Counted from the first letter of the stretch, positions 5,584-64,000 are shown. The stretch is DNA of 64,000 nt from Eukaryota sp. GEM-RC1 (GCA_040285855.1 JAUFOQ010000002.1:3534001-3598000); one strand, 5' to 3'. Numbers and translations are program-made. The notes: a model not told the origin generated them from the sequence alone.

Positions 5584-6379
5584 AGTATTATGCGAACAGT
5601 ATCTTCACCATAGGTTAGATTTATACATCAATAAACTTTGCTTTTCCAGACTTGATGTGTGCAGTCTTGGGCAAAGGGTTTCAGCAGTCAACTTAGTACG
5701 ACAAAATAGTGTTTCCGACTTGATTGGATGTACATGGCTGGAAAGTAGGATCAATGTAGCGAGACTTGGATTAATATTTTCAAATGCTCTGGTAATTGTG
5801 ATTGCTGCACTCTGTCCCACACAAAAAGTTCTTCGCTGACTGTTTCTCATTCTTACAGACATCTCGATTGCCGTTTTGACTATTAACTACAGCAGTTCAA
5901 AAGCCAAACAGTAAACAAATTGCCGTAAACAAAAAGTGTAATCTTTTGTCTAGGGTGTTTTTCCTAAAGTGAAAGTTCTTCAGAAGACTGATACACCCAC
6001 AACTTCTTTACTCCAAAATGGATGCAAAATTGAATATAACATCAAACAAATGGATGATTTTAGTGACGAAAAATGATGCCACAATATATGCAATATTATT
6101 GTTCATTGCTGGGACTCACAATAAATATACTAGTATTGTTGTTGTTTTGACCAACAATAAATATATTGTTAATATTTATTGCATTAAATAAAATAACAAT
6201 ATACCTTTTCGCATCCCTGAATCGGTGTAATCTATGAGATCACCTTTAAAAGCTAACAAGAACTAGAACAGGTTAGTGAAAAGGTGTTCCCAATGGTACG
6301 TGGTGTTGCCTATCATCGACTTTTCTGATGATAGCTCTACTCAATGCTTTCGTTTTCTTCGCACTTTTTTGGGAAATTA

Positions 6380-8275
6380 TGAGAAAATTCATTCAGAGTT
6401 AGATCATTGGCTAGCATTCAATCAAAATTAAACCAAATATTTTTTTTTAAATGTGAGTAAACATGTTTCTTTTGCAATGCTCCAGATCTGTTTTGCCGGG
6501 AAAATTAATTATTTTTTACGATCATTAGACTATTATGATTACGTTTAAGTTTTCAATGTAAGTTTTTCAATGTAAGTTTTGAGTTGAGTAGTTTCACGGC
6601 ACTGCTATTTTGAATCTATGTTAGGTCAGCTGTTTGATGATGGACAGAAGGACTATAGTTTAGATACTTAGTTATGATTTTTTGCAAGAGCAATTATTTA
6701 ACTGATTAATCATAAACCCCGTTTGTTTTAGACTATTCCCTTACTGAATCAGTTGTCAAAAGTGAAACTTTTTGAAAAATGATGATAATAATTTTAATAA
6801 TTATGGACTTTACTACCTTGTAACGCAACTTCTATTAACAAAATTTTGAACGAAATTTGTTCAGCTCTTGAAACTGCTGAAAGGAAAAAGTGAGATCGTT
6901 ATGGTGAATCAATTGCCAAGATGAATTCTAATCGACACAATCAATTCGTTTTCCATTCTGATGCTGTCTCTCTTTACGGAACGCTGGACTTTTTCGGACC
7001 AAAATTTCAAACAATCTTTCGGCAAATTGTGTAAGCAGTATGGAAAGAGTTTTAGCGAAAGTTATTGGAGAGGAAGGTTGTCATTTTCCCTCCTTAAAGC
7101 ATTGTTTATACTTTTTGATTCAATTTTTAAACCGTCTTTTTAAATCGAGACATGACTTTGAGATGATGTAGAGGTATTAGTATCTCTTTCATTAATATTG
7201 ATGATATTTACAATATTTTGGGTTCAGTCGTAGACGGCTCTTATGCTTTATTGAACTCTTTGGAGGAGTTAGTTCAAGGTTTGCCTATTGAAGTTTGGAA
7301 CAAAATTTTGCCGAAAAGTATTTCTTCTATTCCTGATCGGTCAATTGAATTTCTACCTCTTTATGTAGTTAAGTTACAGAATGCAACATTACTTGGGTTG
7401 GAAGACTTGGATTTTAGTAAAAGACCTAGAATGACTAAGATTGATAATCCCGTCTTTGCAGCTCTTATATGTGACATTCAACAATGTTCTAGCTTCATCA
7501 CTCAACAACCCAGACCTTTTGGTTTACATTTGAACAATGATGCTTGGAAGCAAAATATGCGTCTTCGATTAGGTTTATTCCCTAGTGGTTTGCTAAATAA
7601 GTCAATCTGTGTTTGCGATAACCGATCTACAGCCACATTTCGTCGTGTTGTTAGTTGCAAGAAATTTTTGCAATTTCGATCTGTTCTACATAACGCTGTC
7701 CGTGACGTTACTTATGAAATGTTCAAATCCTACAATTATAGTTGTAAAATTGAACCTCTTCTGAAACATTATAGTGACAATAATGTTTTTGATTCTCGGC
7801 GTGGTGACCTAATTGCTCCTTTCCTGGATTCAGCTCAAGTTGTGGTTGATTTTACTACAGTTGACCCGTTTGCAAAAGTCTACCAAGACTCCATTTTGAA
7901 TGATTCAAATGGTCATCTGGAAAAGGCTGAACAAAGTGTTCAAATTATGCGGATGTTTTGAAGAAGCTTAATGAAAATCTATATTCTAAGTTTTCATTTG
8001 TTCCATTTGCAATTTCAATTTTTGGTATTATTGGTCCAGCCAGTTTAAAATTTTTCAACGATTTTAGTCTTTTATGTCGTACTGATGGCAAGGTTTTTAA
8101 TAGTGCTGTATGGATTAATCGAATTATGTTTGCTCTTTACAGAAGCATTCCCAAGTATTTTAGTTCCATTTATTCGAAGTTGTATAGGGATGATTTTCGT
8201 GTTGATGTGGAGAATTTAACTTCTTTCATTTTCTGAATTAGTATGTATTAATCTATTGTTGCAAATAAACTCTTC
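6380..8275 (+). mobile_element. Rearranged/degenerate RLE-type non-LTR retrotransposon
   Basis: 6440-6535 matches the VSKHVSFAMLQ.CF.GKIN.FLRSLDY segment of ORF 63291. ORFs 7218-7961 and 7958-8236 carry the Zn-knuckle/RLE domain. The 3' end AATAAACTCTT is shared with the 4786 copy. 7030-7210 recurs at about 56185-56357. Confidence 0.8.
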
Positions 8276-10395: not shown

Positions 10396-11125
10396 CAGTG
10401 ATCGTCAATATAAAACCGTAAATACGGTAACTTTTTAGACTTTTTTGGGTGCCTAATAAACATCTCTCTCTTTTTAGACAACTCCGTAAATTATTCTCGT
10501 ATTTTACGGAACAGTATAATTTACGACAACAATACTATTTTCCGTAAATAATTGCAATACGGAACCGTATTTCACCGTAAATTTACTTTTGGATTTCCAC
10601 GTTTCTACAACAAGAATTGTTATCAAACTGCTCGTTTTTTTGGAGTGAAAATTATAGTAAAAATCATATTTTTTTCTAACACTGCAATCTTCTTATTTTC
10701 GTTTTGACAAGAATTGGAACTTCGTATTGAACAATATTTTTCTGATGTTGTGAAGAATCAAAACTTTGATAGTCATCACAATGATCAGTTTTGGCATGAT
10801 ACAGAAGATTGGTGTATCCTTTACCCTTCTTAATCCAAGTGAAAACAATGGGTTGACAGTACTTACACATGTAGCAGTCATACGAGATTACAGTATGGAT
10901 CCTAGGAGAATGTAGCGGGTCTTCCAGCTTCGTTAAGAAGTTTTTGATACGCATCGTCTTGCATTGTTTACGGAAAAATTCATATTCTACGGCATTGTTT
11001 TACTGTAAATAATTTCCGTATTTTATGGGAAACTCTATTTTACGGAAAGCAATAGTTGGTACCGTACCATATTTACTGCAATTCCATAAATACACTGTTT
11101 TTATTTTACGGTTTGACGATCAGTG
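10396..11125 (-). mobile_element. hAT deletion derivative with BED zinc-finger remnant
   Basis: TIRs CAGTGATCGTCAA / TTGACGATCAGTG (1 mismatch). TSD GTTGATTT / GTTGATGT (7 of 8). Internal ORF 10676-10954 has CKYC...GYTNLLYHAKTDH (BED-finger pattern). Second copy at 29678-30285. Confidence 0.8.
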
Positions 11126-29677: not shown

Positions 29678-30430
29678 TAGTGATCGTACAAAACCGTAAA
29701 TACGGTAACTTTTCAGACAACTCCGTAAATAATTTCCGTATTTTACGGAACGGTATATTTTACGACCACAGTATTATTTTTCGTAAAGAATTGCAATACG
29801 AAACCGTATTTCACCGTAAATTTACTGTTGGATTTCCACGTATCTACAACAAGAATTGTTATCAAAATGCTCGTTTGTTTGGAGTGAAAATCATAGTAAA
29901 AATGATACAGATTTCTAACACCACAATCCTCTTATTGTCGTTTTGGCAAGAATTGGAACATCATAATGAACAATTGTTGTTTGATGTTGTGAAGAATCAA
30001 AACTTTGATAGTCATCAAAATGATCAGTATTGGTAGGATACAGAAGATCGGTGTACCCCTTTCCCTTCTTAATCCAAGTGAAAACAATGGGTTGACAGTA
30101 CTTACACTTGTAGCAGTCAGACGAGATTACAGTATGGATCCTAGGAGAATGTAGCGGCTCTTCCAGCTTCATGAAGAAGTTTTTGATACGCATCGTGTTG
30201 CATTGTTTACGGAAAAATACATATTTTACGGAATTGTTTACCGTAAATAATTTCCGTATTTTACGGGAAACTCTATTTTACGGAAAGAAATGAAACCAAA
30301 TATTGCAAAATATTGCACGATGTATTGAAATATATTGCAATAACTTGGGTTTTACAATAAATATATTGTACTGGTGAAACAAACACAAAGCATGTATGTA
30401 TTGCAATACAATATATTATTGGGCATCCCT
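29678..30430 (-). mobile_element. Second copy of the BED-finger hAT derivative, joined to a CATCCCTG hAT end
   Basis: 29678-30285 closely matches 10396-11050. The region ends GGGCATCCCTG (30430), like the right TIR of the 3667-6219 family. Confidence 0.7.
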
Positions 30431-35229: not shown

Positions 35230-36010
35230 GTATTTCCTTTTGCAATTTCCCTTCGACTTGGTAAAGATGCTCTAATTTTTAGAAAGTTTTCTACATAAAG
35301 AGCGAACAAGAAATTTGATTTTGAGTTTTGGTTGAATGTTATTGTCTTTACAATATTTAAAACAATTTCTTTTATGATTTCGAAAGTTCGATTAGATCTG
35401 ATTATTTTCTACAAAGAAAAAAGCTGATATGAGTTTTAATGGAAATGCATGTTGCTTTAACTTTAATGATATTGAGTTCTAGTTTTGGAATTTATCTTTA
35501 AGTTATGGTTCTGGAGTTAAGTCCATCTTTTCTTCAGCAATGGCTATTCGAAATTCTGAAACGGTTCAAAAATTAGTCAAAATGCATCCAAAAGAAGTGT
35601 TTTGTGTGTTAAACCTCAAATTTGTCAATTTTGGATTGATAATCCTATTTTCCCAACAGAAGTTGCAAATGCTATTGATAGACTTCCTAAAGGTAAAGCA
35701 GCTGGACATTCAGGCATTTCATTTGATTTGTTGAAAGCTGCTGGCAAGGCTGCTCCAGAAATTTCTGAAGATCTTTCTAATTACTTTCAACAGATGGTAT
35801 GTTTGAAAGTTATTCCTCCAATTGAATCGACTGCTGCTCGATTTATTGCTTGAGTAAAACCAGGTAACGGAATTAAGCCTGATGGAATCCGTCCAATTGA
35901 AGTCTCAGAATCAACTTCTCGTTTATCCACTTCAATTGTGTTTAATCCAGTGGTCGATAAAGCAAGTCGCTTTATGTCTCCATTTCAATGTGGAATTAAG
36001 ACAACAGAGA
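35230..36010 (+). pseudogene. RLE retrotransposon fragments: 3' tail (35230-35500) plus N-terminal RT region (35500-36005)
   Basis: KFDFEFWLNVIVFTIFKTI tail, then LPKGKAAGHSGISFDLLK...ARFIA*VKPG..DGIRPIEVSE..SRL...SPFQCGI (CRE-like RT domains 0-2). Confidence 0.75.
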
Positions 36011-45482: not shown

Positions 45483-46523
45483 AAACACCCTGTGCAATTC
45501 TACAAATTGAATTGAGTCTTTATATACAAAGCAAATGAAGAGAACTAGGGGTGGGCCATTCGTTCATTGCCAAAGTAGATGTAACAACCATGTCAATGAT
45601 GAGATCAGTGGTCAACACCAAAATGTGGTGATGTCAAATTTTGACCAATGAAATTGAACGAAGAGTTCAACTGAAGACATTCACGTGCTGTATCTTCACA
45701 TAAACCATATTTGTATATGGGAGGAAGGATGAATGATCATGTCTTCACATCATGATCTATGTTCGATCCACCCATCCTCTACCGTCTTCTTCTGCATGTA
45801 GGTGGGATACCTATGTCACATAGTACACATTTTATCATTTCTGCGCTGGTATTTGTTCTTACAACACGATGAACTCTTCGTCTTCGTATCTTAAGGTTAT
45901 AGTATTGGTTTAGCAGAGAGGTGATGGCGATACAAGAGAAGAAGTCTTTCAAGTCTGAGAGGTGATAAATCTAAACACCTTCGTTTTGAGAATGGTGCGC
46001 CTTCGACGTTATATCTTTACTCTGTTGACTCTATTCACAAGAGATGTTCTTAGTGCCTTCTTCCTCCAGCAAAACGTCTCTACTGAAGTCGTCGTCCGTT
46101 TTATCACTGTTAGTGATGTCAGGAATTTCAGGATGTTGAGAAAGAGATTCATGAATGTAAAGTAGGAGAGAAACGCCACCATGGAATCATCCCACAGAAT
46201 CAAAAAAGTCAAGGGGAGAAAGTCAGTCAGTCCCAAATTCCACTAGCAGGGATTGTATACTGCAGCTACCATATACAAAGACGGTGCTAAGTCAAAGTTT
46301 GAATTAAGATGATTAAGATGACCCATCGTAAATCTTATTCATTCATCTAGCGAGACCATTGGGATCATACAAACAATTCTGAGAACAACCACTCAAGAAC
46401 CTCTAGTCTACTGTACTTATTTACCAAAAGATTCTAATCATTGATGTAAAATATTTTTCTGAAAGTAACGAACCTGTAGTTGAAATCCAATAAAATCCAC
46501 AATATTTCATAAATTTCTTGAAC

Positions 46524-48322
46524 ATGACTACCACGACCTCCACGGTGACGTGTTCACTTGCCAAATTTTTTGACCCGCCAGCTCGGACAGTGATGAACAG
46601 GCAATTTCGGTACCTTCGAGACGTTGCTGTTCACTCAACTTTACTGGCCCGGGTGTTTGTGCTCCAGCACCCCCACTTAGCACGCTGGTTGACTGACCAG
46701 CGTTTCTGGTACCAGTGCTTTGGGTTCGTTGCTCACTCTGAGCCGAAAGTAAACCGCCCCTTTGAGAACGACAATGGAGTGTACACTGCACTGCATCTGT
46801 CATCAAGTCTTCCACCAGTATCCATTTGGCCGTTCCCTCCTCTTGGCCGACACAAACCGACACGCTGGTGTTACTCACAACTCTTGAGTGATAGGTCACG
46901 ACAGTTGTCTGAAGCTTTTCAACAACTGATGGCCGATGGTCCAGTCAGTTGGAAGCTGAACTTCTTCCGGACCGCTGCTGTATTCCTCGACTGCCCGACC
47001 CCTAAGGGATACGCTTCTGCTGTCGTACGTGGTGCTCAACCTGGAGCATCACTGCAGCAATGGTGGAATGCTCATCACCAGCAAACTCTGGCCACCTTTA
47101 ATCACTTAGTCGGGGATGTTGTCCTGTTCAATAATCTTTTGACAGAACGGTCTGTTGCCCTCAATGAAACGAACACCTCATTTCTGTTCACAGCTGGATT
47201 GAACCTGTTGTCTGCTCTCGAGGATGCTGCTCCAGATTGTATGCGCCGCCATGCTCTAGTTCCAATGGCCAGCTATGCTCCAGTGTTTGTATCATTCTCT
47301 CAGGAAGTGGAGAGACACTTCACAGAGTTCAACTTCTCAAGGACTCTCAAAAGTAACCCACTGAAAACGTTTAGAAAACGCCCCCGTTTCCAGACTTACA
47401 CCCTGGCCTCTGATGGTGTAAGTTTGAGGATAATTTTTCCACAAAGCCGAAAAAAACAAGGAACCGCCCTACCAAGGAGCAGTTTGAGTCAAGGAGGGCC
47501 AGTGGCTCCGAAGACTTCAAGGTTAAGTCTCGAAAGAGAAAGTGTAACCTACAGAAGAAAGTTGCTCCGTCACGATGACGTGCGAGAACAGCTGATTTCG
47601 AACCTCCTCCTGATGAAGATTGGTTATGGTGTGCAATTGATCCCAACCACAGTAACCTATGTGGTTGGTCTATTGGAACCAACACTGACTATTTATTGGA
47701 CTCTGGAATTACACTGGCACCAAAAGCCAAGGCTATCAATACTGTTATGTTTGGTGCTTTGAGCAACTCTACGTCGAACACCTATTCCGTTCAGAACATG
47801 TACATGTATCTGCTCGAGATATCGACCACTATTGTTGATCAAAATATGAGTAAGAACAGTCTAGAACGGTGTTTATTAAATGGGAACAGGCCCAACCTAC
47901 GGAGAAACAAGTTCGATTTCTTCATAAGAAAACAGAAACGATTTGATTTATTTGCTCAAAATTTGAAAAATATGGCACAAGGAAGCCAAATCAGAGTTTG
48001 GTTTGGAACAGGAGGTGCTAGCCCATCTAGGCAGCAAGTGAAGTCTCCAAGAAAGGGATTCCTTCAATATCTCAAAAGATTCTTTCCCGTTATTATGGGC
48101 GATGAATACTTCACTTCCGCAAAAACTAACTGCTGTAAAGTGAGGCATCAGTTGATATATCATGAAGTAGATGGAGTAAGAAGAGTGATTCACGCCATAT
48201 TTCGATGTCCAACATGTACTCAGGTTTGGTCAAGAGATATTTCCGCCTCCAGAAATCAACTTGAGATCGCTATAGAGGGTTACTTATTTGGAACTAGGCC
48301 TGAAGCTTTCCAACGTACTTAA
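46524..48322 (+). CDS. Fanzor1 (eukaryotic TnpB-like RNA-guided nuclease), one -1 frameshift near 47580-47590
   Basis: N-terminal TVTCSLAKF, LASDGVSL. The second frame has RuvC-I CAIDPNHSN (Asp 47639), VWFGTG...SPRKG, RuvC-II GDEYFTS (Glu 48104), Zn ligands TNCC...CPTC, and RuvC-III WSRDISASRN (Asp 48236). Confidence 0.88.
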
Positions 48323-48457
48323 TTATCTATGTATTGGCCGATGAAATTCAAGTTACCTTGAATGGAGGCCGTAATGTGGTGCTTCGGCAGAAAAGGGGTG
48401 TATATGAAGAAGCTTTCTTTGAAAGTGTAAAGTATGCATTTCTTGGAAAATCCACAG
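48323..48457 (+). ncRNA. Candidate Fanzor omegaRNA scaffold / element right end
   Basis: Directly 3' of the Fanzor stop. Perfect hairpin ATTCAAG-TTAC-CTTGAAT (48346-48363) inside GGCC/GGCC, a C(UUCG)G hairpin TGCTTCGGCA (48380-48389), and an end AAATCCACAG|TA that recurs at 51245-51255. Confidence 0.55.
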
Positions 48458-48724
48458 TAGTCTAGTTCAAGTTGTTTTTCCTCTCAATTCTCTTCTGCAA
48501 AATGTTCAAACTATTAGCTCAAAAAATGTGACATTGTATAAAAACTTGTATAAAAATCATAAAATATAATTCATGACCTTCTAGAAACATTAAATTTCTG
48601 TGCAATCAACTAGAGTATGTGTTTTTGACACTATAAAACTTCGTTATCTGAAAGGATTTGATATTATAGTGATCCCAATACTAAACTGACACAAACATCT
48701 ATTTATCTGTACAATATAGATGGA

Positions 48725-49813
48725 TTTTTTATCTGCTAAAGATTTGGTATCATCCTTGTCTCCTGAAATGTGGGAATCTTTGTTCCCTGCTCATTTGAAG
48801 GAGACTCCTTTAAAAAATATTTCATCTCTACCATCTGCTGTATGTAAGCTGCAAAATAAATTGACAAGGAGTTTGAACTCTTGGACTTTAATAATCGTAT
48901 TAGCTTGGCTAAAACTAATAGTCCCGAGTTCGCTGCTTTTTTAATCGATCTTTGTAATAGTGGACCTTCTGGATTTATTTCTCAAATTCCAAAGGTGTAT
49001 GGATTACATCTATCTGATGAAGCTTGGATGATCAATATGCGTCTTCGTTTGGCTATTTGGCCTGCAAATTTATTAAACTATTCAACGTGCTCTTGTGGAG
49101 CTAATGGTGTTTTTCGTCATTTAATTAATTGTCGTTATTTTATTCATCTCCGTGCAGTAATTCATGATGGTGTACGTGATTCTTGTTATTCCATGTTTAA
49201 AGCACATGGTTTTCACTCTAAAGTTGAACCAGTTTTGAATCATCTTTCAGAAAATGAATTTACTGATCAAAAAGAGGGGATCTACATACTCCGTGGCTTA
49301 AATCGAGTCAATCATTAATGGATTTTACTACAGTAGATGTATGTAACAAATCTTGTGTTAGTAGGATATTAGATTCTTCTTTTAATCCATTTACAGCAGC
49401 TGAAAAGCTCAAACACTCCAAGTATGACTCTCAAGTAGAAGAATTAAATAGAAACTCATATTCCAAATTTGTGTTTCAACCTTTTGCTGTTTCTCTTTTT
49501 GGATCTATTAGTCCTGCTGGTGATCAATTTTTCAAGGATTTCGAAGAATTGTGTAAAGAAAAGAAGCGTAAGTTTAGAATGGCTGAATGGAAAAACCGTA
49601 TAGTGTTTTCCATATATCGGAATATGCCTTTCTACTTCTCTAGATTAATTGAGAAATTGTACAAGTTTGGTGTGAAGGTTAATGTTGATAAACGTAATCT
49701 TTTACCGGGTGGTGATGAAGTCGTTTGGATTTAATCTTAGTATTATTTGTTTGTTTTTACAATTTCATAGTTTGTAGGAAGGTTACCTTATTGGGTGCCG
49801 AATAAACATCTTT
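48725..49813 (+). mobile_element. 5'-truncated RLE non-LTR retrotransposon
   Basis: CSC...HLINC, HDGVRD, DFTTVD, AEKLKHSKY, FQPFAVSLFG. 12-bp TSD AATATAGATGGA (48713-48724, 49814-49825). Nearly identical to 63648-64000. Confidence 0.9.
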
Positions 49814-50329
49814 AATATAGATGGACATGTAGCCTTCAGAAATGTCATCCAGTTAAAAACCGTCTATTTGGGTGGTTGAATCAACAAAAACAATCCAAAT
49901 CAAACACAAACATGTTTGATCGGATTGTCTGGTGGGATTGTTTTGATGACGTCATCAAGGTACCAACAATCATTGTTTAATTGAAAGAAGAAAGCTGAAG
50001 AAAGAAAAAATTGTAAGGACCTTGATTCCTTTTATATAAAAAACAGACTCGAACTAAGACTGTGTTCTTATTGATAATAAATTTGATTCAGATATAATGA
50101 CAAACCAATACCTACCTGAACAGAACAGAATCAGTGGAAAAAAAATCAAACTTTCAAAATTCAACAGGTTTTCAAAATGTTCAACAGCCTGAGACTCCAT
50201 CGAAAAAGAAGATAAATTAAATAACGATTAAATAACGAGGATTGATTGTAGGGTCCTCCTCATTTAAGACGATGTTTTGATTTAAGCTCATATTTATGAA
50301 TAATAAAGAGAGATAATTGAGGGGAAGTG

Positions 50330-51255
50330 AAAAGAAGTTGTCAAGATTTTAGTCAATTCTGTCAAGATTATAGCAAAAGTGATTTTAGACCTTCACATTT
50401 TAGACCTAACATCTTCCCTCATCTCCCTCGCCTTCTCTTCCGTTCTTGAAGACTTCTTTTACATCACAATGTGTTTGACTTGGGGTCTTCTTCTTTCACA
50501 CGAAGATTTTCGATCTCTTCCCCTAAAACCCTCAGAAGACTCAAAAGTACGTGCTGTATGGAGGTATTTATTCTTAGGACTTAGTCAAGAAGATACTGCC
50601 AGGATCTTCTGAGTCTCACAGTCCTCTATTAGTAGATGGGTTTCTTTCTATTTAAGATTGAAGTCCAAACGTGATCGTTGAGCTTCTGGATAGAAGTACT
50701 CAACTATACAATGCCTCATCTTTACCACATATATGAGTGTTGTCATCAACGTTGTGCAGAGACATTGTGTATACCCACATTATGATTTGTTTAATCACTT
50801 TATTTTTGTACTCCTAAACGTAAAGAATCTTATACAGCCACATAAGTCTCAATAATCCATTGCATCAAATGTTAGTTGTCTTTTACACGATCAGTCTTTG
50901 TGAGAACCATATGACGGGTGATACATCAAAATACACAAACCAAATACTGGATCAAGTCCTTGATTTTTGTATTCATCAACAGGGAATGTACCATTGTTTG
51001 TCAATCACAAGTGCAAATTCTTATCAACCTAAGGTCAAGGTAGACCCGCTGTCCTCGAGAGACTAAAATCTCAAACAACAACTATCGACGATGGCAGGCT
51101 ACAGATCAGGTCCCTAAGAAGAAGAAACGTGGAATCTTGAATCTTAAGTTAGCTCGTCCTAAAAGGCTTGCAAATGAGTGGCACAATGTGTCAAACTGTG
51201 GTGATAGTGCATAGGTGTGAGTGTAGAATTATGCATTTGAAATGAAATCCACAGT
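50330..51255 (+). mobile_element. Decayed Tc1/IS630-like element (HTH remnant) sharing the Fanzor element's right end
   Basis: SEDSKVRAVWRYLFLGLSQEDTARIF*VSQSSISRWV (about 50532-50642) is an IS630/Tc1-type HTH. The 3' end GTGTAGAATTATGCATTTGAAATGAAATCCACAGT resembles 48425-48458. Left boundary uncertain. Confidence 0.55.
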
Positions 51256-51411
51256 CATCCATTATGTTTTGTCCTCTGTATATGTCTGTAACAATACTAA
51301 AAACCAACAACATATTTGAGGGTCCCTATCTTATATAAAAACAGACATTTTTCATGTTATTCAACAGATATCTATGGGTCTTTATTGAAAAGATTACAAG
51401 CCGATATGGAT

Positions 51412-52310
51412 TAGAGTTGCCGTCGACTGGACTCGAGTCAAAAACTCTAAGTACACTCGGGCACAGACTCGAGTCGCGCCGATCGTCACACACACACAAA
51501 CCAATTGTTCTCAAGTGAAGAAGATGTTGACCTCTTTGTCAACTTCGAAAGGAGTTGGGGTATAAACATTGAGTACAGGAACCTGGAGTACGTAAATAAG
51601 AATGTTCCTTGTCAGGCTACTGAAAAATTGTACAAACTAAGAGACTGACGAGATGAAAGAGTGGGCGGAGGAATGTTAAAAGGTTGACCACTGTCTTCAG
51701 GAAAGATCAGAGGCTTCTTACATGGAGGGGAAACAATTTGATGGGCTACAACATGGAATTACGATGAGCATAAATCTGCTTGAAGGACGTAATGAAGAGA
51801 GGGGAGAATGGTTGGTTGCTCTCAGTCTTGAAGACATGAAAGCAGGGGATTTAGAGAGGGTAGATCTTGAGAAGGGTAGATCTTCTGAGCGAAATAGAAG
51901 ACTTGAAACGATAGAAGATTTCTGAGATCTCGGAAACAAACTGTAAGGAATAAAACTCTTTCGGGAAGAATCAGTGTAAACGGTACAATGAATCCAGTCT
52001 TCGGGATTGTATTAAGCTTCAATAAGTGATGAAATCAAGACCAACATTCGGATGACAAGATGTCAGTTGTACTTACTGATAATTCATTCAAGATCTCATC
52101 AGCACCAGTGAAATCGTTGGTTGAGAGAAATGGAGGATCTTCTGCTTCGACCGAAGATGCTGAAAGGCGAAAAGACGAATTGAATCGAACATGTAGAGAT
52201 GGTGTCTTCTCAGTAAATGTAGATAAGACATCCCAAAGTAAAATTAAAAAGAAAAGTTATATTGACAAGATCAACCTATACATTGTCCATGTAGAGGAGA
52301 CTGAAAAGTG
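51412..52310 (+). mobile_element. Possible decayed hAT element
   Basis: Starts TAGAGTTGCC with two GACTCGAGTC palindromes (51430, 51466). Weak hAT C-terminal-like fragments (ISSAPV..., EHVEMV). No right TIR found. Confidence 0.3.
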
Positions 52311-52888
52311 AAAAATGAAGACAATCGTCAATAAATGTCTTGACTGACATGACACTGTAGACACATCTATAAATATTAACAACCCACAAAATGGTCCATT
52401 TTTTTGCTCACATGTCGATGTTCATTGATTCGACGGCTATGAGAGGCCTGTTTTTGGTGGGAAAGTCATCCTATCAAATCAGGTGGAATTCTACAGAAGC
52501 AACTTCTGTAGATATCTTGTATCCATACAGCCTGGGTGGGACCGGGCGGCAATATGCTATTCAAAGGCATCATTGTTCAAGCAAAACCCCAAGGAAGGCA
52601 TTTTTGGTCATTGATCCAATTCAATCCAAATTTTTTATTTTTTCGAAGTCGAGGGTTTTTTATGGGAGTATGTGTGTTGTTTTTGGCAGTCAGGCCTATC
52701 ATTTTTACATGCCCAGCATGGTGATAGAACCACCAGGGCAACACACTGCTTTCCAGCCCCCAAACTTGCCTCCTTGTAAAATTCAGTGGATCGGTGGTGG
52801 TGGTTTTGGTGGTGGTGGTGAAATTTTATTGAAGTGTCGTTTTTTGCAAATTTCTGTCAGTTTTGATTGTAGACTGCAGTTCAAAATT

Positions 52889-52930
52889 GATCTTACGTCT
52901 GATGGTGATGTGGAATCCAATCCAGGTCCA
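52889..52930 (+). other. 2A-like ribosome-skipping (StopGo) peptide
   Basis: DLTSDGDVESNPG|P in ORF 52391-53023 is an exact D(V/I)ExNPG|P consensus with the typical upstream L..GD. Confidence 0.85.
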
Positions 52931-53058
52931 CAATCTAATCCCAATTCTGATCCCATCGGTACAAGATTGAGTCTTCCTTTTATTCGACTTGATGATTCGA
53001 CTTCCATTGTTCCCCCCTGTTAAAAAAAAGTCGAGTTGATAGTGATTCCAGTCCTCCA

Positions 53059-54066
53059 ATGTCCAATCTCGAAATTTTAGCAAGAGTTGCCAAAAAAGCT
53101 CAAGTTAAAGCCAAATCACGGAGAGCTCCCTTGAATATTAATGGACAACGCCTGTCTAATAGAGTTTTTCCTGCTAAGAAATCTTGTCTCAAAGCTTTGA
53201 GGAAAATTAAGCCACATGACAACAACGAAAAACAGAATTTGATTGAATTCGGATGTGCTCAAGAACACCCTAATACTTATGCTCTTCCCAAGATTATGTC
53301 TATTGACCTGGAGACAATGCATCATGATGATGAAATTCCAACAGCTATTACGGAGGAATTAAGCAAGCTTCGAGGAAAGGAATCGCTGAAGTTAAAAAAG
53401 ATGAATTCAGAAGAGCATGATCGATGGATTGCTAGCCAAAAAGTTATGTCAGTTGCATAAATTTTTGGCCGTTTTAATGAAGAAAATTTTTACGAAGAAA
53501 AATCAATTATTATCTGTGTCAACCTTTGTGCAACAAACCTACCTTCTCCAATTGAATGCAGTTTATCCCCAAGAACTGAAATCTATGTTGTGCCCAATGA
53601 GTTGGTCCTGCTCCATATATTGATAGACGTGATTCAAGATTACCAGCCAAATTTCATTACTGGTCACAATATTATTGGATTTGACTTCAAAGTTTTGGAC
53701 AAGCGTTTCCAGTTTTATCAGTTCCCATGGCCTGTTAATTTCCAAGAATCCAACCTTAATCTTTTATCTAAAAACTGGCGTGAAGTTGTTAAAAATATAC
53801 ACGGATACTTGATACTTGATACTTTATTGTTCGCAAAACGTTTTCTCACAATGAAATTTGGAAACGATTTACCATCTCTTACACGAAATCTGATACACGA
53901 ATTTTGTCTCAAACTTAAAAAGGAAGAACTTGGAAATCTTTTGCCCATTGATTGTTGGTGTGAAAGTACACTGGTCTCTCTCTTAGTTGATTACAATTAT
54001 CAACACGCCAACTTAACTTTAAAACTTTGTATGCAATTCCAGAAAGAAAAATTTATTCTTCCAACT
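53059..54066 (+). CDS. DnaQ-like 3'-5' exonuclease domain of family-B DNA polymerase type (one in-frame TAA at 53458)
   Basis: ORFs 53059-53460 and 53590-54114 are the same frame, separated only by TAA. ExoI KIMSIDLET (Asp 53305, Glu 53311), NELVLL...QPNFITGHNIIGFD (ExoII), GYLILDTL, ExoIII-position YNYQH (His for Asp). No polymerase domain follows. Confidence 0.8.
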
Positions 54067-55506
54067 TATAGGATGGTAAAGTCTACTCTTCCACGAATTT
54101 TGGAAGCATCGTGATGTCTTTGAAAACATTGTGCAGCTAGCACCTCAATTTCACGAACTTCGTCGCCATACCCTACAATGCCTGCAATTGTTTTTAACAG
54201 CAAGATTTGAACGTGGAGAAGCGTTACCTGAAATCACTGAACAAATGATTACGTCTGTAATGACTCGAATAAATTATCTTTGTGCCCAATTTTATGGTCA
54301 GCCCTATAAACGACCCAGTAGTGCAATTGATGCGGACTTAGAACGATTTGTCATGGGAGAAGCACAATTCGACAGCAACTCAATTCACAAGGGCTATCGT
54401 ATTCAGTTAGAAGCAAATGAAGGCCATAACTTTCCAATGTTTCCTCCTCAAGGCTTCTCTAGACCACCAGAATACATTGCTCCAGTGCTCTTGTGTAACA
54501 TTAACAACAACTTGAAACTCCACTTTGGAAAACATATTAATCGTTTCATTAACGTATATTTTGGAAAAAAGCAGTCTGAAGAAGAAATTTCAAATTTAAT
54601 TAAAGAGCTGCCAAGAGAAGAACGACCTGATCGTCAACAAACTTTAACTTTGTATCGTTTTGCTCTTCGACAGATTAAAGACATTTTTACTGCTGAATCT
54701 GTCGATAACTTCAACTTGTTACTTTCAAATCAATTTTGCCTAGAAAAGTTTGAAGAAGATTGGAAGGATAAAGCAGGGGAAAAAGGAATGAGACCTCACG
54801 AAAAAGACTTTTTATACGATGCCTTTATTTACCCGTATGTCGTTGAAAAATTTGAAATTTTGCAGAGATCACCTCCTTTTAAATTAAGAGTGCTTCGACC
54901 ATTTCCTCAAATTTCGGAACTCGAAAAAAAGCCTCAATTATTCATGCCGGCAGCCATAACTATGAATCGTTATGTGAAGGAGAAAGAAGAAGCGGCTTTT
55001 CACTGGTTTCCCGCTGTAACCACGGTAATCCCAGGCTACTTTCCTATTGATACTAGAACTTTGTGGAATATCGTCAGGCAAAACAAGAAAACCAAGGATC
55101 TGAAGTTAATGAACAACCAGGCTGAGGTGACCAAGTTCAAACCAAAAGACCAACATGATTTTTGGAAAATGTTTGTAAACTTCGATTTAAAAGAATTCAA
55201 AAGAAAGATTATGTGTTCAACAACATTATCCACAGTGACGGTCAAAACTGTTCAATTGAGTTAGTTAGGCGTGACTTTGCTGGTGAAAAAAGAGGTAAGG
55301 ATGATTTACAAGGAAAGATTAAAGAAGTTTATTGTAAAGACTTGAGAGCAGAAAAATTTACAACAAAAAAAGTAGTTGTCTGTGACCCTGGAAAAAGGGA
55401 TCTACTTTATTTTGGTGGAAGAAATGAAGAACAAATTCAAGAAAACAAGTGTAATTGGCTGCGACTGACACAATGCAAATGGACTGTGGTAGCAAGAAAG
55501 CAATGA
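54067..55506 (+). pseudogene. Second Fanzor1-like protein, truncated after RuvC-I
   Basis: N-terminal YRMVKSTLPRI (in the exonuclease frame), HTLQCLQLFL...LPEI, NINNNLKLHF..HINRFIN, FP....IPGYFPIDT, YVFNNIIHSDGQNCSI, RuvC-I VVCDPGKRDLLY (Asp 55384), LRLTQ. Frameshifts at T4 (54098) and an A-run near 55205. No RuvC-II or RuvC-III downstream. Confidence 0.8.
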
Positions 55507-56173
55507 TAACTCCAAGTGATCGTGCTAGAGCTCCAAAGTTCAATATCAAGGATGAAAGAACGTGCATTAGACCAATCGTCATCATCAACGTCAAGAAATA
55601 CGTTCCTGACAAGGGTCGAGTCAGAGTCATCAGGTAGAGGGAAGTAAAGAGAATGCATACATGAATGATTTCCTGTTTGTGATCATACAGTGGGTGGTAA
55701 AACTGGTGGTAATGTCTTTGAACAATGTATTTAAGCTGACCTGAACTTAGTACAATACGGAACTCAGTAACTGGAGAAATGTATTTGAAAGGCTTTAGTT
55801 CAATAACAGGAACAGTTGTAGAGGTTTCTAGAGCATCACAGCACTCATCTGAGGACTTAAGCAGACAAAGAGCTGATTCAAGATTGTGAACTTTCAAAGA
55901 GCCATAGAGCCACATTGCATCAGTGGCAGCTGTTCCATTCAACTTTACAAAAGTAGATGGTCCTGTCTTGGAAAACAGGAAGAAGATCGCTCAAATCATA
56001 GACTGGAGAATTGGAGTCTTGAGGGATAGTTTGAGGTTCTTCTGTACACAGGAGTATTAAGTAGGAGGTTGTGAGATCAGAATGGAATCTGCAAAAAATT
56101 GTTGAACATCAGAAAAAACGGCACAAAAGAAGTTGGAAAACATAAGAAACACGATTAAATGAGTAAAAATCAT
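55470..56173 (-). CDS. CDC123: CDC123/D123-like ATP-grasp protein, frameshifted; limits approximate
   Basis: FVKLNGTAATDAMW..GSLKV...LLKSSD, EFRIV...IVQRH, and in the adjacent frame VFLDV...FILDIELW match CDC123 motifs. Confidence 0.65.
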
Positions 56174-57356
56174 GCAGTTAAAGCAGTATGGAAAGAACTT
56201 TTAATGAAAGTTACTGGAGAAGAAGGATGTCGCTTTCCCTCTTTAAAACATTGTTTAGGTATTTTGATTCGATTTTAAACCGTATCTTTGAATTGAGACA
56301 TGAATTTGAGATGGTGTAGAGGTATTAGTATCTCATTTGTTAATATTGATGATATTCCTTATTTATAATTGTAAATAAAAAGGGTTTTTTAATATATGAG
56401 TAATTGTCGATTTGTTATCCTGTACTGTATCACATATCATGCACCTATGCTCTTCGTACATGGAATCACTTCTTTTGGTTAGAGTTAGATTTTGTTGCGT
56501 GGTTCATATAGTTTCTTAATGGAGTAATGCCACGTAAGTTGCAGCTTATGCATAATACCATAGTTACTAGAACGCCCTTTTGTCATCAAGTTAGTAAAAG
56601 AAAAGCAATACGTGATGATTTTCAAAATCATGTACTGTTTAAGAGTAAAATGAATACGTAAAACTATATTGGGAGCCGATAGCACACGAGTCATTTCACT
56701 AACACTGGGAAATATGTCTACTTTAGACGCCCCCCACCGCCCAATTTACAATGGTTGTCAAACAAACAGCAAATAAGGCAAAACCAAAAGTTGTTTATGG
56801 AAAAACTGAACCTACATGTCGAACTTATTCAACAATACAGTGGTTCTCAGAAAAAAGTTTTTGTATTTGAAGAAACACAAATCTGCCCAACTGAATTGGC
56901 AGATGATCCTGTCTACCCTGCCCAATTTAGTGACAATTTTGAGTTGTACTCTTATTTAAACAGTCATATTAAACTGAACCACAGTTCAGAACCATTGAAT
57001 ATAACTGACAATAACTGAGGAGACGATACTTATGTGGAAGAAATGTTTTTAAGCAGTAGAATCTGTTTGTTAAGGAAAAAATGGCAGAACCCACAAATGT
57101 GATAGCTGTGATTCAAAAACACGTGTAGAAACACGTAAACGAACATCATACTAAAAAAATAGTTCAAACAATAGTTGTCAATAAACAAATGGAATATATA
57201 GTGCAATTTAATTACAATCACAAGATTCATGATTGGGAAACCAACATCCGGCTTGGATTCGTCAACAATGCGTTTGATTGAAAAATAATCAAAAAAACAT
57301 GGCTGCGAACCCCATTGAAAATGAAGCAGGGCTTTCGTTAAGTTATTCTAATTAAA

Positions 57357-63290: not shown

Positions 63291-64000
63291 ATGTTATCTT
63301 TAGATGTGAGCAAACATGTTTCCTTTGCTATGCTTCAGGTCTGTTTTTCCGGGAAAATTAATCATTTTTTACGTTCATTAGACTATTCCCTTACTGAAAC
63401 ATTTGCCAAGAAATTTAATTCTATTAGAACAAATTTTCTCTCTAACTTGGCTGAAATTGATGAGTCTAACATTCCATTTCATGCTTTTTATTCTTCTGAA
63501 TTCGCAGGAGTAGGTTTCACCCATGCAAAAATCATTAGAAAATCTGCTCTTTTAGGAGGTGTTAAGAATTTTATGTTTGAATTTTTGAAACGGTTTCCCT
63601 TGGATGGAATCAATCTGTTGAATTCCAGTAATTGCCGTTGGATTCAATCTGCTAAAGATTTGTTATCATCTTTGTCTCCTGAAATGTGGGAATCTTTGTT
63701 CCCTGCTCATTTGAAGGAGACTCCTTTAAAAATATTTCATCTCTACCATCTGCTGTATGTAAGCTGCAAAATAAATTGACAAGGAGTTTGAACTCTTGGA
63801 CTTTAATAATCGTATTAGCTTGGCTAAAACTAATAGTCCCGAGTTCGCTGCTTTTTTAATCGATCTTTGTAATAGTAGACCTTCTGGATTTATTTCTCAA
63901 ATTCCAAAGGTGTGTGGATTACATCTATCTGATGAAGCTTGGATGATCAATATGCGTCTTCGTTTGGCTATTTGGCCTGCAAATTTATTAAACTATTCAA
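63291..64000 (+). mobile_element. RLE non-LTR retrotransposon ORF fragment (post-RT region), runs off the window
   Basis: KINHFLRS...FAGVGF thumb-like region. 63648-64000 is nearly identical to 48731-49086. Confidence 0.85.

Follow-up and report, generated by a model that had tools for sequence, protein, structure and literature searches.

Among described Fanzors, the closest to the locus reported here are those of the SpuFz1/PpFz1 type (Fanzor1; PDB 8GKH, 9CEU-9CEZ, 9CF0-9CF3), whose hallmarks are given in passages of PMC10711439 as a DPG motif in RuvC-I and a TDG motif in the WED domain. GtFz1 of Guillardia theta (PDB 9CER) is more distant in sequence. The source passages on this protein (PMC11423790) describe an active, non-canonical D-E-N RuvC triad, mention no fused exonuclease, and report that the substitution D606N in SpuFz1 led to higher activity. 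Two further kinds of sequence are relevant to the locus: the proofreading exonuclease of family B DNA polymerases (Pol delta, 3IAY; PF03104), with its motifs ExoI DxE, ExoII N-x3-FD and ExoIII YxxxD, and the non-LTR retrotransposons L1Tc, Ingi and CR1/L2, which carry a 2A-like motif near the front of the ORF (passages of PMC3708506).

The locus lies in a 64,000-nucleotide stretch of Eukaryota sp. GEM-RC1 (GCA_040285855.1), hereafter the window. A sequence-only reading had proposed that a 2A peptide, a PolB-type exonuclease and a Fanzor are joined there in a single polyprotein. The features are as follows.

52391..52930, + strand: upstream frame, with the 2A motif at its end and no recognisable domain
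52405..52580, no strand assigned: hairpin cluster, upstream of the 2A frame
52907..52930, + strand: canonical 2A motif DVESNPGP, with DLT just before it, as in most relatives
52931..53298, + strand: basic, Ser-rich linker; its reading frame is broken between 52996 and 53020 (C6 at 53012-53017)
53299..54042, + strand: PolB-type DEDDy 3'-5' exonuclease, from PF03104 and alignment with relatives
53299 (SIDLET), 53305/53311 (ExoI D/E), 53662 (GHNIIGFD, ExoII) and 53992 (YNYQH), + strand: exonuclease motifs
After ExoI within the exonuclease, + strand: family-specific charged helical insert, from alignment
53458 and 54004, + strand: TAA inside the exonuclease, and His codon CAC in place of the ExoIII Asp
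54043..54066, + strand: short, fixed-length junction between the final helix of the exonuclease and the first strand of the WED domain
54067..55503, + strand: Fanzor1 WED/REC region through RuvC-I, with frame breaks near 54100 and 55200
54067 (YRMVK), 55031 (PGYFPIDT), 55231 (HSDG) and 55384 (DPGKRDL, RuvC-I), + strand: Fanzor motifs
55504-55506, + strand: stop codon of the Fanzor frame; homology to the family ends near 55497
55510..55990, - strand: host D123/CDC123-like gene, outside the element, which meets the truncated Fanzor head-on

Three-frame translation placed the 2A, exonuclease and Fanzor motifs exactly where the earlier reading had put them, and the exonuclease did run into YRMVKSTLPRI in one stop-free frame that also holds ExoII and ExoIII. 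The strict 2A motif occurred once in the six frames of the window, against 3e-5 expected. Positions 53461-54111 matched Pfam DNA_pol_B_exo1 (PF03104) with an E value of 1.4e-14, and 55159-55503 matched the family profile with a probability of 99.4. The Fanzor pieces of the window copy had no informative match in a Pfam search and, in a single-sequence PDB search, found only GtFz1 (E 1.3); the family profile was needed, and the assignment comes through relatives. The window copy has the DPG motif of RuvC-I (55384) and, near 55234, an SDG variant of the WED motif, which is TDG or TNG in relatives. The upstream frame at 52391..52930 had no Pfam match and did not resemble the pre-2A regions of 20 relatives. 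The start of the linker looked, by eye, like the basic stretch that follows the 2A in P0118 and P0100.

As written, the window copy reads as a broken, 3'-truncated and non-functional member of its family, with three frame breaks, one TAA, an ExoIII Asp replaced by His, and RuvC-II and RuvC-III absent; the last two of these had already been noted as caveats, correctly. The breaks had been described as one-base shifts, each in a homopolymer. Their presence was borne out, in that tblastn of relatives on the window gave frame changes near 54100 and 55200, but the break near 53012 is placed solely by frame offset (374 nt from the post-2A codon to the ExoI Asp), and the extra base near 54098 may lie in a neighbouring GG and not in the T4 run. 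Homopolymer errors do not account for the TAA and the ExoIII His, which are substitutions at conserved positions; genuine decay is thus no less likely than sequencing error. The same type of error had been claimed for host genes, which was true of the D123/CDC123-like gene (frame change near 55650) but not of the host ORFs of 517-1238 aa in the window, which are unbroken. Two retroelement copies in the window that are 99% identical differ by one A in an A-run.

Two ways of rescuing the copy were considered and ruled out. Recoding of the TAA at 53458 is contradicted by the long host ORFs, which are open under the standard code, and by the relatives, which show I, V, C, L or M at that site. Nor do RuvC-II and RuvC-III lie further downstream: tblastn of the family C-terminus found nothing in the window, and extensions beyond 55506 run through stop codons. 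The neighbouring host gene (PF07065, E 2.2e-10; human CDC123, E 1e-4) also appears to be incomplete. Its match to the 356-residue human CDC123 goes no further than residue 233, with little space remaining before the Fanzor, so that a single deletion or mis-join is likely to have truncated both the Fanzor and the CDC123-like gene.

Relatives were found by several routes. A search for longer relatives gave one match among 2,278 candidates, P0001 (732 aa, 34% identical), which carries exonuclease and Fanzor in a single chain; as a query, P0001 retrieved 11 proteins, itself included. A phmmer search of 1.84 billion representatives gave 72 matches, four of them with PF03104 (P0014, P0015, P0020, P0077), and the family profile found 3 among 6,434 candidates. 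Further members and genome labels were added from protein cluster records, and one automatic record co-annotates PF26935 (DUF8286) with PF03104. Locus searches of viral contigs and metagenome contigs found no relatives, and the ESM Atlas offered nothing beyond leads below 0.9 to viral Fanzor-like clusters. All fused proteins whose label was checked are labelled Eukaryota sp. TZLM1-RC, TZLM3-RCL or GEM-RC1, which we take, mainly from the likeness of names, to be Skoliomonas, free-living metamonads of soda lakes. The sequences of the relatives come from gene prediction, done with AUGUSTUS in the paper describing these genomes, and such models can skip sequence, since P0092 and P0100 are without ExoI.

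A motif census of the 141 collected proteins found ExoI, ExoII, ExoIII, RuvC-I, RuvC-II and RuvC-III together in 11, eight of which also have a 2A-like motif. The motif-complete fused proteins fall into three subfamilies under two genome labels, and seven of the eight complete 2A-bearing proteins are near-copies from one subfamily. Complete predicted proteins are available under public accessions, e.g. KAL0228040.1, KAL0227463.1, KAL0226007.1, KAL0221781.1 and KAL0221217.1. The single Exo-Fanzor ORF that had been proposed is thus predicted in relatives; its size was underestimated, the predicted mature product of complete relatives being about 1,080-1,200 aa and not about 850.

The fusion is supported by the spacing at the junction. 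The distance from the ExoIII Tyr to the first REC motif is 55 residues in 33 of the 34 proteins in which both points could be located and 54 in the other (P0020 escaped the pattern), and in the window copy it is 55 codons plus 1 nt. This junction recurs under all three genome labels and in subfamilies that share about 30% identity; between seven subfamily representatives, identity is 19-45% across the exonuclease and 23-51% across the N-terminus of the Fanzor. No 2A motif lies between exonuclease and Fanzor in any of the collected proteins; the other modules are 2A-separated. In a quick tree of 43 Fanzor regions, 16 family rows (four of them fragments without settled exonuclease status) split from 27 other Fanzors with an SH-aLRT of 100. 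Short unfused matches were excluded from this tree. Fungal Fz1 is absent from its outgroup, so that nearer unfused relatives may be missing. Trees of the exonuclease alone and of the Fanzor alone (10 rows each) have both starred clades in common, and P0005 is the nearest row to the window copy in each. We are therefore nearly certain that the fusion is a real architecture of the family and not an accident of the window copy.

The opposite reading is that a Fanzor starting at its own ATG (54073) and a polymerase fragment are chance neighbours, joined by an error of assembly or of gene modelling. The three frame breaks and the stop of the window copy would fit this, as would relatives such as P0008 and P0012, whose models begin within the Fanzor. 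Against it stand the fixed junction spacing under three labels and P0013, the protein most similar to the window copy (91% identical, GEM-RC1 label), in which one frame extends from the final helix of the exonuclease past the break at 54098. The window exonuclease also has the family's helical insert after ExoI. The Met at 54073, raised earlier as a possible separate start, is not conserved, being found elsewhere only in the P0097/P0077 subfamily and in P0013. An artefact is thus largely refuted, and we consider it very improbable. Nor were the halves found to go separate ways: relatives carry both in one predicted ORF, and profiles and structure assign them to Fanzor1 and to PolB exonucleases.

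The exonuclease half of the family retains its predicted active site. The ExoI Asp and Glu and the ExoII Asp are present in all seven subfamily representatives and in the window copy (DLE and FD). The window copy fails in the Tyr-x3-Asp of ExoIII, where it has His; the Asp is kept in 34/34 relatives, so this loss is specific to the window copy. The three motifs are shared with family B polymerases, from which the Exo-Fanzor differs in its charged helical insert after ExoI and in having no polymerase domain: no Pfam match to palm, fingers or thumb follows the exonuclease, and the chain continues directly into the Fanzor.

The Fanzor half belongs with SpuFz1 and PpFz1. In a search of the PDB, the family profile matched PpFz1 (E 9e-40) and SpuFz1 (E 3e-39). 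An AlphaFold2 model of the complete relative P0130, built on a 77-row alignment (pLDDT 79.9, pTM 0.70; residues 1-126 disordered), replaced an earlier one on a shallower alignment (pLDDT 52.7). Foldseek matched the newer model to SpuFz1 (target-normalised TM 0.79, E 1.5e-26), followed by PpFz1, GtFz1 (E 8e-18) and family B polymerases (E 1e-7); in a viral library, the Fanzor-like and polymerase matches among the best 50 were separate proteins. P0130 is accordingly predicted to have the Fanzor1 fold, with WED, REC, RuvC and TNB domains. Complete relatives have the RuvC-II Glu beside a zinc finger, the zinc finger itself and RuvC-III, and so share with the SpuFz1/PpFz1 type the TDG-type WED motif, the DPG of RuvC-I and the placing of the RuvC-II Glu. 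They differ in belonging to a 2A-led polyprotein, in an N-terminal exonuclease of about 250 aa joined at the point where SpuFz1 starts, and in the RuvC-III residue, which is Asn in 33/35 family proteins and Asp in 17/18 other Fanzors. A dead RuvC is not implied by this change, since GtFz1 is active with Asn. Judging by sequence, the family appears to extend the D-E-N triad to a whole clade.

A natural exonuclease-Fanzor1 architecture appears to be undescribed in print. The earlier reading knew of none, and a full-text literature search, whose reach ended at subscription journals, Repbase and bioRxiv supplements, likewise found no natural Fanzor-exonuclease fusion. The term exonuclease is absent from the searchable parts of PMC10530073, PMC10711439, PMC10432273, PMC3627910, PMC11423790 and PMC10691335, and from the searchable supplements of PMC10530073 and PMC10432273 (which do not extend to fig. 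S1B of PMC10530073, on extra Fanzor domains). Fanzors are also not mentioned in the available portions of published 2A surveys.

That deep subfamilies keep a natural partner domain in a fixed register directs attention to the step that follows the Fanzor cut. A useful analogy is homing of the phage T4 td intron, where I-TevI cuts at a distance from the insertion site. The 3'-5' exonucleases of the polymerase (43Exo) and DexA assist there after the break (passages of PMC2988022). Because these exonucleases are phage proteins in their own right, and I-TevI is not guided by RNA, the td system serves as a working analogy and not as a group to which the Exo-Fanzor belongs. In the scheme we favour, the 2A peptide would detach the Exo-Fanzor from any frame upstream and leave it with an invariant Pro at the N-terminus. 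An omegaRNA from the right end of the element would direct the Fanzor to empty sites, much as TnpB is reported (10.1101/2023.11.20.567912) to cut vacant sites and so maintain its element. The D-E-N RuvC would then cut, like that of GtFz1. According to passages of PMC10432273, the SpuFz1 cut in the non-target strand falls after base 16-17, counted from the TAM; the TAM-side end would therefore carry a 3' tail of 16-17 nt, which would not be contiguous with the left flank of the donor. The tethered exonuclease would strip this tail, and host recombination would copy the element into the break. We rate the central proposal, that the exonuclease trims the 3' tail of the cut end so that homing copies the element, as about evenly balanced. 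End resection, which had been suggested before, does not suit the enzyme: classical resection yields 3' overhangs, which a 3'-5' exonuclease is unable to produce, and for this reason tail trimming fits better.

The fused exonuclease might instead act on RNA, trimming the 3' end of the omegaRNA precursor to guide length. DEDD enzymes include RNases, which counts in favour of such guide maturation, and the Prp43/DHX8-like helicase carried by P0089 would fit a role on RNA as well. Passages of PMC10711439 have Fanzor1 RNAs running about 15 nt beyond the element end and those of PMC11423790 report guides of up to 20 nt, so that something must trim the guide RNAs. Against this, every profile and structure match of the exonuclease is a DNA-polymerase proofreading domain (the best polymerase match of the family profile being Pol delta, E 6e-8), and unfused Fanzors in yeast form active RNPs without an exonuclease, as passages of PMC10432273 describe. 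Overall, a role in guide maturation seems unlikely.

The modules ahead of the exonuclease vary. 2A-like motifs were found in 20 of the 141 collected proteins, and in the models of the 18 relatives having both motifs the 2A is in frame with the exonuclease; a frame break offsets the two in the window copy. His occupies the Glu position of the 2A-like motif in 16 of the 20, a site important for skipping according to passages of PMC3708506. No 2A was found in the models of P0015/P0089/P0090 and P0085. The pre-2A part is tandem-repeat sequence in several models. A Ulp1/C48-like protease comes after the 2A in P0020 and P0092, with Pfam E values (0.59 and 0.0018, respectively) that miss the cut-off, and P0121 has an apparent protease tail before its 2A, as judged by eye. 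P0089 carries a DEAH helicase most like RNA helicases (E 1e-21 to DHX8/Prp43), which is 99.8% identical over 453 aa to that of P0139 on another contig; because near-identical copies lie on different contigs, the helicase may belong to an element. The models of P0089, P0139, P0015 and P0088 suggest a longer form, made up of repeats, a Cys/His-rich region, the DEAH helicase, the exonuclease and the Fanzor, and a shorter form without the middle part; P0139 looks like one subfamily nested within another. Only the models of P0010 and P0011 combine family sequence with a reverse transcriptase, likely as a result of neighbouring insertions. 2A-like motifs can now be placed on Fanzor elements, and unlike in the 2A-bearing non-LTR retrotransposons, the product downstream of the motif is a predicted DNA nuclease fusion.

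Such modularity would also suit an exonuclease that is cargo, acting apart from the Fanzor in, for example, the replication of a larger virus-like element. The upstream modules do differ between subfamilies (Ulp1-type protease, helicase), and DNA transposons are known to have unlinked DEDDh nucleases and helicases as additional components (passages of PMC3627910). The junction with the Fanzor, however, is invariant in length and 2A-free whereas the other modules vary, and the exonuclease and Fanzor domains are co-inherited; independent action of the exonuclease seems quite improbable.

The exonuclease-Fanzor family is likely to be a mobile element. It is multi-copy and dispersed, with near-identical copies and many fragments, and one subfamily has nine long copies in one genome, 90-97% identical after the 2A, on several contigs. 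These dispersed copies and fragments form the pattern of a selfish element, and neither a guide array nor a single conserved locus was seen. Both observations argue against a destructive function, in which a guided cut followed by 3' degradation would ruin a target (viruses, rival elements or empty sites) by blocking re-ligation. That helicase, exonuclease and Fanzor are aligned in one model (P0089) would suit such a function, and engineered exonuclease-Cas fusions are reportedly used to increase mutagenesis; even so, target destruction seems rather unlikely. The engineers' exonuclease-CRISPR fusions alter repair outcomes, and an Exo-Fanzor that trims ends for homing would be their evolved counterpart.

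More broadly, and as a tentative idea that we regard as doubtful, the family could represent a protist radiation of transposase-free homing elements, in which a 2A-processed polyprotein supplies an RNA-guided nuclease together with end-processing machinery (the exonuclease, joined in one subfamily by a DEAH helicase). If true, spread by guided cutting, tail trimming and gene conversion would amount to a natural RNA-programmable gene drive, and the fusion would be a ready-made Fanzor-exonuclease editor.

The ends of the element are less clear. No terminal repeats, target duplication or transposase were found around the window copy, and no omegaRNA or TAM was found for this copy, whose right end is lost. 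Terminal or tandem repeats considered as marks of the element ends were only short and at chance level, and Rfam gave no matches in 46000-57000. The hairpin cluster at 52405..52580 is possibly the left end of the element and is put forward as a candidate: its RNA z score is -4.7, none of 200 shuffles was equally stable, and it ranked best among 160 background windows. A second copy of its main hairpin is absent from the window. The perfect stem at 52490-52512 is flanked by letters like those of a Cas12a repeat handle, presumably by chance.

Other repeats and mobile sequences were also present in the window. A second, unrelated Fanzor/TnpB-like gene lies at 46524-48322 on the + strand, with its own ATG, a frame break near 47600, a canonical RuvC-III Asp, a match to PF07282 (E 1e-5) and no exonuclease upstream. 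Fragments of non-LTR retroelements related to the reverse transcriptase of P0010 occur at 6303-7616, 35516-36009, 48731-49734 and 63297-64000, two of them 99% identical. Inverted-repeat pairs of about 700 bp (4785-5504/7562-8277 and 33765-34495/36039-36812; 88-99% complementary) each enclose one retroelement fragment, in the manner of foldback-like elements. A MITE-like repeat of roughly 580 bp, with internally repeated ends, is present at 10470-11053 and 29709-30291, the two copies being about 89% identical.
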